Shown one piece after another: positions 29,428 through 52,051 of a stretch of DNA of 64,000 bases (positions within the stretch are counted from its first letter, which is position 1; the number at the start of each line of letters is the position of its first letter). The notes under the pieces are model-generated. The model had not been told where the DNA came from. It did not search any database and was given only the letters and a program-made list of their open reading frames with translations. Source of the DNA: Candidatus Aenigmatarchaeota archaeon (GTDB taxonomy: Archaea > Aenigmatarchaeota > Aenigmatarchaeia > PWEA01 > JACQIF01); contig CP066684.1 in assembly GCA_016432325.1 (NCBI GenBank), positions 800,001 to 864,000 of the forward strand, in the 5' to 3' direction. The translations under genes and the position numbers were made by a program.

Positions 29428-29613
29428 TGGTGGGCCCGCTGTGATTTTCTCATACGCCGGAAGGCGTACTTTCCCTAAAGGCTTTTGGACGGAAATGTCC
29501 AAAAGGCTTTGAACACAGGTTTCCAACATGTTAGCTCGTTCTTCATCTTCGCTTCAGAAGCTTAGAGACGAGTCCCCAAGCTGGAGTCCTAAACCAAGCT
29601 AGACTACGGGCCC
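29428..29613 (-). tRNA. tRNA-Pro(GGG) with introns at 37/38 (29529-29573, 45 nt) and 59/60 (29445-29507, 63 nt)
   Basis: GGGCCCG/CGGGCCC acceptor, CCA; BHB helix TTGG/CTAA. Confidence 0.92.
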
Positions 29614-29671
29614 AGTGGGAATAACGCCACAGACCAACCATTTATACTTGTTTACCAGAACGTGCCTTCGA

Positions 29672-29728
29672 GGGCAGGTAGTCGTAGCACGCTTTTGCGA
29701 AAAGCGTGGGCAAAACGACGCCACCTAT
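29672..29728 (+). repeat. duplicated tRNA-Ala 5' end plus a copy of its D-loop intron hairpin
   Basis: GGGCAGGTAGTC at 29672 and 29729; AGCACGCTTTT..AAAAGCGTGGGCAAAAC vs AGCACACTTT..AAAGTGTGGGCAAAAC. Confidence 0.8.
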
Positions 29729-29920
29729 GGGCAGGTAGTCTAGACAGCACACTTTAAAAAAAGTGTGGGCAAAACACAAATTGCCAGCTGGGAAAACGGA
29801 ATGACGTCACGTTCGCAACGTGAAGGTCGCGGGTTCAAACCGGGCTTTCTTCCAAAGAAAGCACGGGTGCAAAGAAGGTAAGCCTTCCGGCACTCAACGG
29901 AAATCCCGCCCTGTCCACCA
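29729..29920 (+). tRNA. tRNA-Ala(CGC) with D-loop intron (~29744-29795, junction +/-1-2 nt) and 59/60 intron (29840-29903, 64 nt)
   Basis: G3-U70 in GGGCAGG/CCTGTCC; anticodon stem TCACG/CGTGA; CCA. Confidence 0.92.
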
Positions 29921-29952
29921 TTTTTATACTTTACACTCTGTACGTTCCTTGC

Positions 29953-30062
29953 GGACCCGTAGCTCAGGTGGTTAGAGCGCTGCTCTGATAGTTGGACATC
30001 GATACGTTGATGTCCTTTTGGTCAGGCAGAGGCCCGGAGTTCAAATCTCCGCGGGTCCACCA
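29953..30062 (+). tRNA. tRNA-Ile(GAT) with canonical 33-nt intron (29991-30023)
   Basis: Full cloverleaf; BHB helix CTGA/TTGG. Confidence 0.95.
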
Positions 30063-30192
30063 CAAATTTCAAGGCAAGGATTTTCGAACAAAGTTCGAAA
30101 ACTTCGAACCGCTGTTCGAAGACAGTTGAAACGCGAAGCGTTTCTTGGGGTCCACCAAAACCTTTTATACAGGGAACGTCGATAAACTCACC

Positions 30193-30528
30193 ATGGCACT
30201 GCCCGCTATCGTCTGGCTCCTCGTTACGGCAGTAAACCTCATAGTTGAAGTGCTGGCCGCCGTCATTGCGTTCAATATGAGCCGCAAGGTCAAAGGCGAC
30301 CTTCTGCGTAAGATGTTTATAACCTTCGGAATTATCATACTTCTCAACACGGCGGCTGACTTCAGCACATACCTTGTCTTTCAGGTGCCGTCAATCCAAG
30401 CAGCCGCCGCCGCGGCGAGCTCACCCCACAGCGATTTTGTCGTTGTCTTCAGGCTACTGAGCAACCTCGCACTCGTCTATATGATGACGCGTTTCGAGGA
30501 GTTCAAGAAGCAGTTCACATTCGGTTGA
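30193..30528 (+). CDS. small three-TM membrane protein
   Basis: hydrophobic ORF, start ATG 30193. Confidence 0.65.
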   Translation: MALPAIVWLLVTAVNLIVEVLAAVIAFNMSRKVKGDLLRKMFITFGIIILLNTAADFSTYLVFQVPSIQAAAAAASSPHSDFVVVFRLLSNLALVYMMTRFEEFKKQFTFG

Positions 30529-30561
30529 GCTTTATATCTCTTATTCTCAAACTGGACTTGC

Positions 30562-30787
30562 GCCTGGGTGGCTCAGTGGTAGCGCCTTTTTGCTGCGGCA
30601 AAAACCCGCGGGAATGCACGGAACAACGTTCCGGCACATCGGGAGCGCACTCCCGAATGAAATCCGCGCCGCGCGCCTAAAGAGCACCAGACTCATAATC
30701 TGGGGGTCGTGAGTTCGAAGCCTTACTGCCCGAGAGGGCGGTAAGTGAAACGCGCAGCGTTTCAGGAGTTACTCACCCCAGGCACCA
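30562..30787 (+). tRNA. elongator tRNA-Met(CAT) with ~100-nt D-loop intron (~30582-30681) and 51-nt T-loop intron (30720-30770)
   Basis: GCCTGGG/CCCAGGC acceptor, CCAGA/TCTGG anticodon stem, GTGAG/CTCAC T stem, CCA. Confidence 0.9.
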
Positions 30788-30822
30788 TAATTCGATACAA
30801 GAACGTTGTATATTGTCGAGAA

Positions 30823-49714: not shown

Positions 49715-49756
49715 ACGTTCACTTCGTTCTTTGCTGAAGCTTTTTCACAAAAAGCT

Positions 49757-50317
49757 TCAAGGCGTTATGCGCGTCACGTGATAGTACGTCACGTCCCCTT
49801 CGTCGTCTACGACCGCCCAGAGCATCGTCGCGCGGATGTTGTGAGCGAGACGCACGGCGCGGCTGAGTTCTGCGTAAGAACACGTGAAACCCTCGGGAAC
49901 CGCGTGGACTATCCACTTGGTGTGCTCCTTCGCGGACTTGGGGCCCTTCTTGAGCTTCACTCCGCGATCATAGACGCGGAAATGGGTGCCGAACTTGAAG
50001 CCCGTACGAACGACAAAACCGCGCTCGCGCAGGTCTTTGAAGACCTTGTACTTCTGGGCGAACTCCTTGTCCAGTTCGCTGGCGCGGGCGTGGAACTCTT
50101 CCTTGTCGAGTTTCGTCTTGCCTTCGCGCACGAGCAAGCGCTTGCGTTCGACGAGATGCATGGCCTCGACAAGCGCAAGGGTGTTCTGGCCGCCCTCGGA
50201 CTTGCCGTAGCAGCCGATGTCGTATACTTCTTCCGCTTCGCGCTCGCCCCAGACTATTACGTCCGTTCCCTCGAGAACGCCTTCAAATTGCTTCACCGGC
50301 TGTTCCGTTTCTGCCAT
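49757..50317 (-). CDS. endA: tRNA-splicing endonuclease, single catalytic unit (alpha4-like size)
   Basis: L.LVEA.HL, VFKDLRERG, GFKFGTHFRVY, EH, VRLAH, VDDEGDVTYY. Confidence 0.93.
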   Translation of the reverse strand: MAETEQPVKQFEGVLEGTDVIVWGEREAEEVYDIGCYGKSEGGQNTLALVEAMHLVERKRLLVREGKTKLDKEEFHARASELDKEFAQKYKVFKDLRERGFVVRTGFKFGTHFRVYDRGVKLKKGPKSAKEHTKWIVHAVPEGFTCSYAELSRAVRLAHNIRATMLWAVVDDEGDVTYYHVTRITP

Positions 50318-50442
50318 AGTCTTACCTCGTGGACGTAACGGAGAAGGGTTTAAATAGCTCATGCCGCAGGGGCAGGAGCTTTAAACGGGCCGGCGCGCGA
50401 AGGGTTTAAATAACTGAGTTCCGAGTCTCTGTAGGGGATCGA

Positions 50443-50985
50443 GTGAGCAAGTTATCGGTCATAAGAACCGCGTTAGAGAAACGGAAGGGCAAAGACATCG
50501 TCGTCGACCCAGTCGCAATAGACGGAAGAAGGGGTTACGGAGGCGTCAACCTGAAACCAGTCAGCGTGCTCTACCGCATCGCGCCCCGAGAGGGCATATT
50601 CGATGTCCCGGGACTCAACGCTTTCATGCTCGGCATGGTGCCGGACATCAAACCCGACGTCGCCATACCATTCATTGCGGACAGGGACGGGGTGCTTAAT
50701 TTCGGTCATCTGCGTTACGACGAGGCAATCGGAGAGCAACAGGTTACGCATAGATACGTTCAGAAGATAACGGCCGACGACCTGCTGGCCGGGGACACTC
50801 TTCCGGGGTTTCGGGACGGCGTCAAGGTAATCGAAAAGCCAAAGGAGCCGGAGCCTTGGATGCGTATGATCAGCCTTAGATTCTATCCGCACGTCAAGCT
50901 GTTCCACAACGGTCCGAACCCGGAGTGGAGAACACAGATGCCTCTCAAGGAATTGCGTTACTATCAACCGCAGAAAGTAGCTTAG
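50443..50985 (+). CDS. hypothetical protein
   Basis: 180-aa ORF after a TTTAAATA box. Confidence 0.55.
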   Translation: MSKLSVIRTALEKRKGKDIVVDPVAIDGRRGYGGVNLKPVSVLYRIAPREGIFDVPGLNAFMLGMVPDIKPDVAIPFIADRDGVLNFGHLRYDEAIGEQQVTHRYVQKITADDLLAGDTLPGFRDGVKVIEKPKEPEPWMRMISLRFYPHVKLFHNGPNPEWRTQMPLKELRYYQPQKVA

Positions 50986-51012
50986 TCCGTTGCCGTTCGC
51001 TCTCGCTGACGC

Positions 51013-51534
51013 CTAGATTCTCGTTCCGTCAGAAGCCAGCATGACCTGGCACTGCTTGCAGAAGTCGAGTCCCTTCTCATCGACGTCGCTGAAGTGCTGG
51101 GCAACGGCCATCGCACACCTCTTGTCCTCGCAGTTCTTCAGGCCGAACATATGTCCTACCTCGTGCACGGATTCCTTGACCAGCCGCTCGGACGTGACGC
51201 CGAAGTTCATCTGGTTGCCGTAGAACGCGGGGTCCAGGCGGGCCGTAGAGACGATGCCGGGTCCCTTGCCGTTTGTCATTCCGAAAACGAAATTGAGATT
51301 TCCCGAGTAAAGGTCGGCGTTCGTGATGAGCAGGACCTTCGGGTCCCTGGCCAGTTTCAGGAGTGCTGCGGCGTCGTACTGTCCCCTGTACTTGTCGTAG
51401 GCGCTTTGCGGCAGGGGCACCTTCCTGTCAACGACAAACTTGTGGATGTAACCCCTTCTGTTCAATTCCTGAGTAAGAACGTCCATGTATTTCTTGGGGA
51501 CGTCTCCTATCTCTATCACGCGAATTACGGCCAT
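51013..51534 (-). CDS. archaemetzincin-family Zn protease homolog
   Basis: RGQY, NFVFG, HEVGHMFGLKNC...CAM...FCKQC. Confidence 0.85.
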   Translation of the reverse strand: MAVIRVIEIGDVPKKYMDVLTQELNRRGYIHKFVVDRKVPLPQSAYDKYRGQYDAAALLKLARDPKVLLITNADLYSGNLNFVFGMTNGKGPGIVSTARLDPAFYGNQMNFGVTSERLVKESVHEVGHMFGLKNCEDKRCAMAVAQHFSDVDEKGLDFCKQCQVMLASDGTRI

Positions 51535-51595
51535 TGTATCGCGTTCTGTACGCGGCGAAGGCTTATATACGTTTCATTGAAAACGAACTTGTCAC

Positions 51596-51835
51596 GCCGC
51601 GGTAGCTTAGCGGAAGAGCGCGTGAACCTTTGGCTTGCTAAAGGTCGCGAGGCTGTTAACCACGAGGTCGTCGGTTCAAAGCCTTTTGCGCCAATGCACG
51701 TAAGTAAACGCGCAAAAGCCTCTAGGGAAAGTCCGCCTGTGCACGGAAATGCCGGGCATTTCCGGCATGTCGGGAACGTAGTTCCCGTACACCGGCACGG
51801 AAGCGCGAACCTCGAGAATCCGACCCGCGGCGCCA
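51596..51835 (+). tRNA. tRNA-Asn(GTT) with introns at 30/31 (51625-51651, 27 nt) and 59/60 (51681-51818, 138 nt)
   Basis: GCCGCGG/CCGCGGC acceptor, G73, CCA; BHB helix CGCG/CGCG. Confidence 0.92.
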
Positions 51836-51840
51836 CAAAT

Positions 51841-52051
51841 GGAGATGTAGCTCAGACCGGGAGAATATGAAAACTTCGGTTTTCAACTTACGATTACATC
51901 GTAAGCCCGCAAGCGCACGGCTGAAGAATACGAAATGTTCGCATTTCGATTTTTCGGTTGCGTCAGAAACCGTGCTGTCGCGTGTTCAAACAAGGGGTAC
52001 TTCGTCACCCTTGAACCCCACGACGGGTTGAGAATCACGCCATCTCCACCA
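51841..52051 (+). tRNA. tRNA-Phe(GAA) with introns at 22/23 (51864-51911), 37/38 (51927-51968) and 59/60 (51991-52034)
   Basis: Fully paired BHB central helices CGGG/CCCG, CTGA/TCAG, TTCA/TGAG; mature length 77 nt. Confidence 0.93.

Follow-up and report, generated by a model that had tools for sequence, protein, structure and literature searches.

The window analysed here, a 64-kb stretch of DNA (G000:800001-864000), belongs to the single-contig, 875-kb genome of a DPANN archaeon of the Aenigmatarchaeota, in which most transfer RNA (tRNA) genes are interrupted by an intron in the T-loop, between positions 59 and 60. Such inserts are present in six of the nine tRNA genes of the window (Arg, Pro, Ala, Met, Asn and Phe) and in 34 of the 45 found genome-wide, which bears out the view of an earlier note on this DNA that the T-loop position is an intron hotspot. 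It is probable that 59/60 is a hotspot because it acts as a universal socket, at which introns copied from other tRNA genes remain spliceable. The contrast lies within one genome: the same splice geometry occurs at a 59/60 site that appears portable and at a canonical 37/38 site that is bound to the anticodon, and shared families fill only 59/60. The system is of interest chiefly as a setting in which to test the arrival of introns, a question described as open in a preprint on Asgard archaea (bioRxiv 10.64898/2026.10.13.758758).

A second intron hotspot at position 59/60

In the window ARAGORN, run without its intron search, gives no tRNAs and Rfam gives two; genome-wide the Rfam model recovers 8/45 genes. 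The two tools miss most of the genes and are unfit as a census, and such genomes will be badly under-annotated by standard tools. The search used here was written for the analysis and threads an archaeal tRNA profile and stem pairing through the DNA, with jumps at bulge-helix-like ends; it cannot see introns that lie within the acceptor stem. Exactly nine tRNA genes are found in the window. Real genes score 40-77, while the reversed genome gave no score of 20 or above in a strict run and a maximum of 33 in a relaxed run. Genes for Leu-TAG, Pro-CGG and Arg-CCG were not found by this search of the genome, which is 90% complete.

The 45 genes carry 97 introns (2.2 per gene); 43 of them are interrupted and 21 have three or four introns. 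The T-loop holds 34 introns, of 21-143 nt, a further 29 lie at or next to 37/38, 26 in the D-arm, where positions are approximate, and 8 elsewhere. The earlier note also held that the T-loop site outnumbers the canonical one. That is so in the window, where canonical 37/38 introns occur in four genes (Arg, Pro, Ile and Phe) as the note had read, but not genome-wide, where the counts are 34 and 29 of 45 and eleven genes with a T-loop intron only stand against six with a canonical intron only (McNemar p=0.33). In a genome of the same order (G019, CP070662.1, 96% scanned) the two sites are level, each being filled in 25 of 33 genes. Position 59/60 is a second hotspot equal to 37/38, with no clear excess over it.

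T-loop introns are patchy across the phylum. This was seen in a pattern census of 151 genomes, which detects only CCA-encoding genes and finds 12/34 of the T-loop introns of the present genome, so that its counts are lower bounds; reversed-pattern controls gave 0-3 matches per genome. Interrupted to intact T-loops number 25:8 in G084, 18:8 in G114, 17:9 in G140 and 10:1 in G024, and 0:33, 0:36, 0:23 and 1:28 in the intron-poor genomes G128, G144, G026 and G039. As G114 and G140 are in one family with G128, repeated bursts or losses are suggested. Tabulation across the genome and its relatives, which the earlier note had proposed as a check, thus upholds the hotspot in the present genome and in G019 but reveals neither an excess over 37/38 nor an even spread.

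Splice geometry and portability

[quoted passage not shown] Tested at each junction of all 45 mature tRNAs, this rule yields an exon-supplied outer helix of 3 bp for 100% of genes at 59/60 and 98% at 37/38; no other junction exceeds 24%. The outer helix is available at 59/60 because the T-loop, like the anticodon loop, has 7 nt and sits on a stem of 5 bp; both junctions lie between the sixth and seventh loop bases, where the mature arm itself gives the outer helix. Position 59/60 is the counterpart of 37/38 in the T-arm.

The sites differ in the exon strand of the central helix. At 59/60 this strand (positions 54-57) is TTCA or TTCG in 42/45 genes, whereas at 37/38 (positions 32-35) it includes the anticodon and takes the form of 20 different 4-mers. 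An intron ending in YGARNN would thus be spliceable in almost any tRNA. When introns are swapped between isotypes in silico, at least three pairs are kept by 90% of T-loop introns but 51% of canonical introns, and in G019 by 97% and 59%. Portability predicts that copied introns pile up at 59/60, and the homology counts below agree. [quoted passage not shown] The most likely route would be ectopic copying at the DNA level, with the short conserved flanks of the T-loop as guide and, less often, jumps to other positions, while selection would remove unspliceable copies; the endonuclease EndA would cut the introns and RtcB probably join the exons. For most hosts of T-loop introns no second gene with the same anticodon was found.

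Intron families shared between isotypes

A significant relative in another isotype is found for 29/34 T-loop introns but for only 6/29 canonical introns (Fisher p=2e-7), and for 16/21 and 3/22 when lengths are matched. Pairs with at least 80% identity involve 13/97 introns, nine of them in the T-loop, and none arises in shuffles; as for transposed introns of the Thermoproteales type, related introns across the isotypes of one genome exceed shuffles. The CCGGGC family has nine T-loop copies and one at 37/38 in this genome, and all six copies of the CAAG family are in the T-loop. In G019 matches of T-loop introns to paralogues often score 41-88, and those to orthologues in the present genome 9-30. 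Within the genus, the 59/60 site of the Phe orthologue is filled by an intron of a different family, that of the Asn orthologue (L002) is empty, and the 59/60 intron of tRNA-Arg(GCG) is related to that of Leu(GAG) in genome G001. T-loop families specific to one genome occur in G114, G140 and G024, with G140 and G114 each owning two or three families of near-identical members.

Identity of the flanks between isotypes is 0.84 at the T-loop and 0.47 at 37/38, and such conserved flanks, with the excess of same-position links, favour copying at the DNA level. Related introns commonly share the exact 5' end (52/67 links between T-loop introns, 24/24 between D-loop introns), whereas 3' ends are shared in only 10/67 of the T-loop links.

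The splice junction and its enzymes

The reading of the window inserts in the earlier note agrees with the present one: they start directly after TTCRAA, are 52, 63, 64, 51, 138 and 44 nt long (Arg, Pro, Ala, Met, Asn and Phe), and end in a 4-mer that pairs with positions 54-57 and is followed by 2 nt, with three pairs in five genes and four in Phe. As many inserts end in AA, the registers from 56/57 to 59/60 yield an identical mature loop, and the register is fixed by the central helix alone. Since the search itself uses the motif, the register was re-tested with boundaries set by the T-stem alone. Three or more bases are paired at 59/60 in 29/34 T-loop inserts and in 0-11 at other registers; random 4-mers from the same introns give a mean of 5.9 and a maximum of 16 in 10,000 draws. 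The choice of 59/60 is well supported, although only 13 T-loop introns have all 4/4 central pairs. Two Ser introns fit 58/59 perfectly, and the introns of Ala-GGC, Lys-TTT and Pro-TGG, whose helix is poor, are assigned to 59/60 because they are homologous at the 5' end to their families. All 29 introns called at 59/60 have a G that pairs with C56, and in Thr-CGT the exon has G55 and the intron the matching C. Removal of the insert restores a complete cloverleaf with a 7-nt T-loop in 34/34 cases, and the exon outer helix is available in every gene. These features suggest archaeal protein-spliced tRNA introns with the relaxed hBH form of the motif, presumably cut by EndA.

That the inserts are instead retained, or are compound, with introns nested or in tandem between 57/58 and 59/60, is suggested by the weak predicted central helix, by the two or more hairpins in most of them and by alternative inner bulge-helix motifs that can be drawn by eye. 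We regard this as highly improbable, given that the introns are structured (z about -3.8) and leave a clean loop on removal, and that retained inserts would, as follows from established tRNA structure, destroy the elbow in the Phe, Trp, Tyr and His tRNAs, each the sole one of its kind. Nesting is possible for the long inserts and would leave the hotspot unchanged.

EndA is encoded in the window. It matches TIGR00324 above the cut-off and its closest relatives, at 85% identity at best, are from Aenigmatarchaeota; no beta or second subunit was found by hidden Markov model search. Its lysine-rich insert is common to Nanoarchaeum and ARMAN-2 and has been named L3, and alpha4 EndAs bearing L3 go with disrupted tRNAs in DPANN (PMC5829648). 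Tyr and His are kept, and residue 178 is Ala where M. jannaschii and ARMAN-2 carry the catalytic Lys, which is essential in the ARMAN-2 enzyme (K282; PMC12397907). This position is Ala or Thr in 66/66 aligned Aenigmatarchaeota-like units (loci L002-L061), alongside a near-invariant lysine-rich L3 loop, which might supply the missing charge. RtcB is also encoded in the genome. T-loop introns are found whether the architecture of EndA is single-unit, two-gene or fused, so the subunit type is not the cause.

Homing at GTTCRAA

The earlier note proposed that the conserved GTTCRAA acts as a homing target. Its stress on T-loop conservation has proved apt, in that conservation matters for portability and may also supply short homology for copying, but a target of endonuclease homing is not supported. 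A homing nuclease or mobile element that recognises GTTCRAA in DNA and inserts there would be in keeping with GTTCRA preceding 33/34 T-loop introns, with the near-confinement of two families to the site (CCGGGC 9/10, CAAG 6/6) and with same-position links above chance (93 vs 45). GTTCRA is, however, present in 42/45 genes and cannot discriminate filled from empty ones; nine genes with the motif lack a T-loop intron and one without it is filled (Fisher p=0.14), so that GTTCRAA is neither necessary nor sufficient for a T-loop intron. At 143 nt or less the introns are too short to encode a nuclease, and the 90% complete genome has no match to LAGLIDADG (PF00961, PF14528), the one nuclease family searched for. 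None of 308 GTTCRAA sites outside tRNA genes leads into the start of an intron module, a test weakened by selection as most of these sites are coding, and none of 21 module matches outside tRNA genes lies after GTTCRAA. The T-loop site holds at least five intron families, three of which are also found in D-loops or at 37/38, which does not describe one element confined to one target. Classical homing is rejected, and recognition of the motif by any such element is already largely refuted. Group I and group II self-splicing introns were likewise discarded, there being no Rfam match in the window and the inserts being too short.

Routes of spread and other explanations

Several observations weigh against the socket and the DNA-level copying proposed for it. 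The homology links are not independent events, so the p-values overstate the support. Hosts of one intron family differ in their T-stems, with no co-conversion, which leaves homology arms of about 7 + 3 nt, short for recombination. In 12/13 links between anticodon-loop and T-loop introns the two members share the 5' base with which they begin, for which homology of the flanks does not account, and the 25 T-loop introns of G084 look mutually unrelated. At the junction, the pair at 57 is mismatched in 13/29 introns called at 59/60; the A57-C mismatch, which is frequent (6/29), fits copying without compensation. In the predicted fold of the precursors the T-stem forms, with a median probability of 0.98, but the central helix is often outcompeted, with a median probability of 0.29 and values of 0.01-0.26 in the six window genes, and the alanine of EndA described above belongs with these points.

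The exact 5' ends that related introns share, even across positions, would suit re-insertion at the RNA level, in which an excised intron is ligated by RtcB into a T-loop cut by EndA or broken, followed by transfer of the product into DNA through RNA-templated repair or a borrowed reverse transcriptase. The T-stems that are not co-converted fit this as well, and portability holds equally for it. It is nevertheless unlikely: no match to a reverse transcriptase (RVT_1) was found in the 90% complete genome, 3' ends are mostly unshared, and the same modules also occur after stop codons and in leaders.

Independent hairpin insertion anywhere, with survival only at 59/60 and 37/38 and no copying between tRNAs, would be compatible with the geometry, with the hairpin modules dispersed outside tRNA genes, with the little copying seen in an Asgard census (bioRxiv 10.64898/2026.10.13.758758) and with the unrelated introns of G084. 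We consider this very unlikely, as it leaves unexplained both the sharing across isotypes at the T-loop but not at 37/38 and the genome-specific families of G114, G140 and G024, the copies in G140 being near-identical.

Selection might also have saturated the site, if T-loop introns destroy the attachment sites on which tyrosine integrases with crossover in the T stem-loop depend. The genome has two integrated elements, at 277318-290329 (13.0 kb, at Gly-GCC) and 776743-784222 (minus strand; 7.5 kb, at Thr-CGT), each with a GC content of 47% against 56% for the genome and a tyrosine integrase beside the tRNA. The two symmetric targets of integrases are the stem-loops of the anticodon and of the T-arm (PMC8371274), and the attachment (att) core of both elements, 14 nt at tRNA positions 63-76, lies wholly outside the intron, as expected if only users of the 3' end remain. 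Archaeal integrases favour 3' ends anyway (PMC8371274), the two elements entered, or have survived at, genes that carry introns and so are not stopped by these, and close relatives do well with few T-loop introns, so that such selection seems a poor candidate. In the attP model an intron is delivered by an integrating element (PMC3293823); delivery of this kind was rejected here, as the att cores cover only 63-76 and no intron. The integrated elements are neither vectors of the T-loop introns nor blocked by them. Copying between tRNA genes into a portable site is left as the preferred explanation.

tRNA genes and hairpin modules of the window

The tRNA genes of the window, their introns and the EndA gene are listed in Table 1. 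The tRNA-Thr(TGT) gene, which has no G18 in its D-loop, is the only one found for this tRNA. Two open reading frames that overlap tRNA genes, 2143-2646 (+; 167 aa) and 51094-51870 (+; 258 aa), have no NCBIfam match and are probably not genes. Elsewhere in the genome a second Leu-CAG gene (582673; no intron, no encoded CCA) and a second Asn-GTT gene (730027) differ strongly from the resident copies and may be foreign.

Table 1. Positions of tRNA genes, introns and the splicing endonuclease gene in the window.
Feature	Position	Strand	Details
tRNA-Arg(GCG)	2144-2379	-	D-loop insert ~2281-2359; 37/38 intron 2235-2261
59/60 intron of tRNA-Arg(GCG)	2161-2212	-	52 nt; 3/4 central pairs
Initiator tRNA-Met	23982-24087	-	29/30 intron 24029-24056; T-loop GTTCAAAT intact
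tRNA-Pro(GGG)	29428-29613	-	37/38 intron 29529-29573
59/60 intron of tRNA-Pro(GGG)	29445-29507	-	63 nt; shares its 5' family with the Asn intron
tRNA-Ala(CGC)	29729-29920	+	D-loop insert ~29744-29796
59/60 intron of tRNA-Ala(CGC)	29840-29903	+	64 nt; CCGGGC family
tRNA-Ile(GAT)	29953-30062	+	37/38 intron 29991-30023; T-loop GTTCAAAT intact
Elongator tRNA-Met(CAT)	30562-30787	+	D-loop insert ~30581-30679
59/60 intron of elongator tRNA-Met(CAT)	30720-30770	+	51 nt; unusual A60 left after splicing
tRNA-Thr(TGT)	31659-31734	+	intronless; aberrant T-loop (GGCAGAG)
tRNA splicing endonuclease EndA	49757-50362	-	201 aa; single alpha-type unit; lysine-rich L3 loop and L10 loop
tRNA-Asn(GTT)	51596-51835	+	30/31 intron 51625-51651
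59/60 intron of tRNA-Asn(GTT)	51681-51818	+	138 nt; missing from the same-genus orthologue
tRNA-Phe(GAA)	51841-52051	+	D-arm intron 51864-51911; 37/38 intron 51927-51968
59/60 intron of tRNA-Phe(GAA)	51991-52034	+	44 nt; 4/4 central pairs; CAAG family

A pyrimidine/purine hairpin, with a third purine tract after it, forms the start of many T-loop introns, for instance at 29840-29880 in the window and in several genomes (G019, G133 and G083). Hairpin modules are also found beside tRNA genes. At 45-133 nt upstream of seven tRNA genes, a copy of at least the gene's own first 9 bases is followed by a hairpin module (29672-29728 in the window; elsewhere upstream of Asp, Leu-GAG, Leu-TAA, Leu-CAA, Thr-CGT and Val-CAC), and downstream of Ile-GAT, Arg-CCT and Val-CAC there are hairpin modules with a second copy of the gene's own 3' end (~30063-30175 in the window; 683050-683126 and 700800-700860 in the genome). 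An apparent copy of the tRNA-Ala 3' end at 53985-53999 falls within the opening codons of an 826-aa open reading frame and was taken as chance. Outside tRNA genes, intron-related modules occur at 49700-49758 (-) in the window and at genome positions 689062, 420466, 652783 and 872648, and at least one begins exactly at a stop codon, namely the one that ends the EndA gene. An exact 16-mer scan of metagenome and viral contigs with the CCGGGC-family module gave 128 loci, none with a hairpin arm, and all were put down to chance.

Comparison with known systems

Introns at 59/60 are known from ARMAN-2, concentration in the T-arm from Asgard archaea and copying between isotypes from Thermoproteales. 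Near-saturation of 59/60 in Aenigmatarchaeota by shared families, and the contrast in portability with 37/38, were not found in the literature searched; searches for T-loop introns of Aenigmarchaeota or DPANN gave nothing, which does not show that none has been published.

Position 59/60 is a listed site of archaeal tRNA introns (PMC4090602), and the EndA of ARMAN-2 (Ca. Micrarchaeum) cuts a 59/60 hBH intron in vitro (PMC3239211). The likeness to that system extends to a DPANN host, 59/60 introns with the relaxed hBH motif, paired 53/54 and 59/60 introns (here in Ile-TAT) and a lysine-rich C-terminal insert in the enzyme. The tRNA-Ile(TAT) gene (genome 698590-698774) occurs here with only two CAT tRNAs found, along with the Ile(GAT) gene of the window, and resembles the ARMAN strategy for AUA (PMC3239211). 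In ARMAN-2, however, 56% of genes are disrupted, against 43/45 here with 2.2 introns per gene and 34 in the T-loop; the intron tested was 13 nt, whereas those here are multi-hairpin introns of 21-143 nt; and the enzyme is a three-unit epsilon2 protein rather than a single-unit EndA (PMC3239211).

Asgard archaea also have about 2.2 introns per gene, concentrated at 37/38 and in the T-arm, with the strongest BHB signal in the T-arm and repeated gains (PMC11291895; bioRxiv 10.64898/2026.10.13.758758). Families that cross isotypes are almost absent there (1.5%), whereas they are clear here. In Thermoproteales (Sugahara 2008 and Fujishima 2010, as cited in PMC4090602 and PMC4033280) similar introns occur across isotypes and positions and genes carry several introns; the lineage and the enzyme type are different, and copying here is concentrated at one position, with nine of the 13 high-identity introns in the T-loop, although the original reports may already describe a bias of position. 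Introns in pairs of at least 80% identity make up 13% here and 28% there, the latter figure coming from a different clustering. In Thermofilum pendens and Cyanidioschyzon merolae, permuted tRNAs (PMC3218864) have the same 59/60 junction and a BHB motif, but here the exon order is normal.

A wider reading, which we put forward only tentatively, is that small non-coding mobile introns inhabit several lineages of Aenigmatarchaeota. [quoted passage not shown] This would amount to a protein-free route of 'homing' by which archaea gain introns. LAGLIDADG homing introns, in the BHB introns of archaeal rRNA and in group I introns, likewise spread at a conserved site; they differ from the T-loop introns described here in that no nuclease and no single element was found, and the spread is between non-allelic genes.

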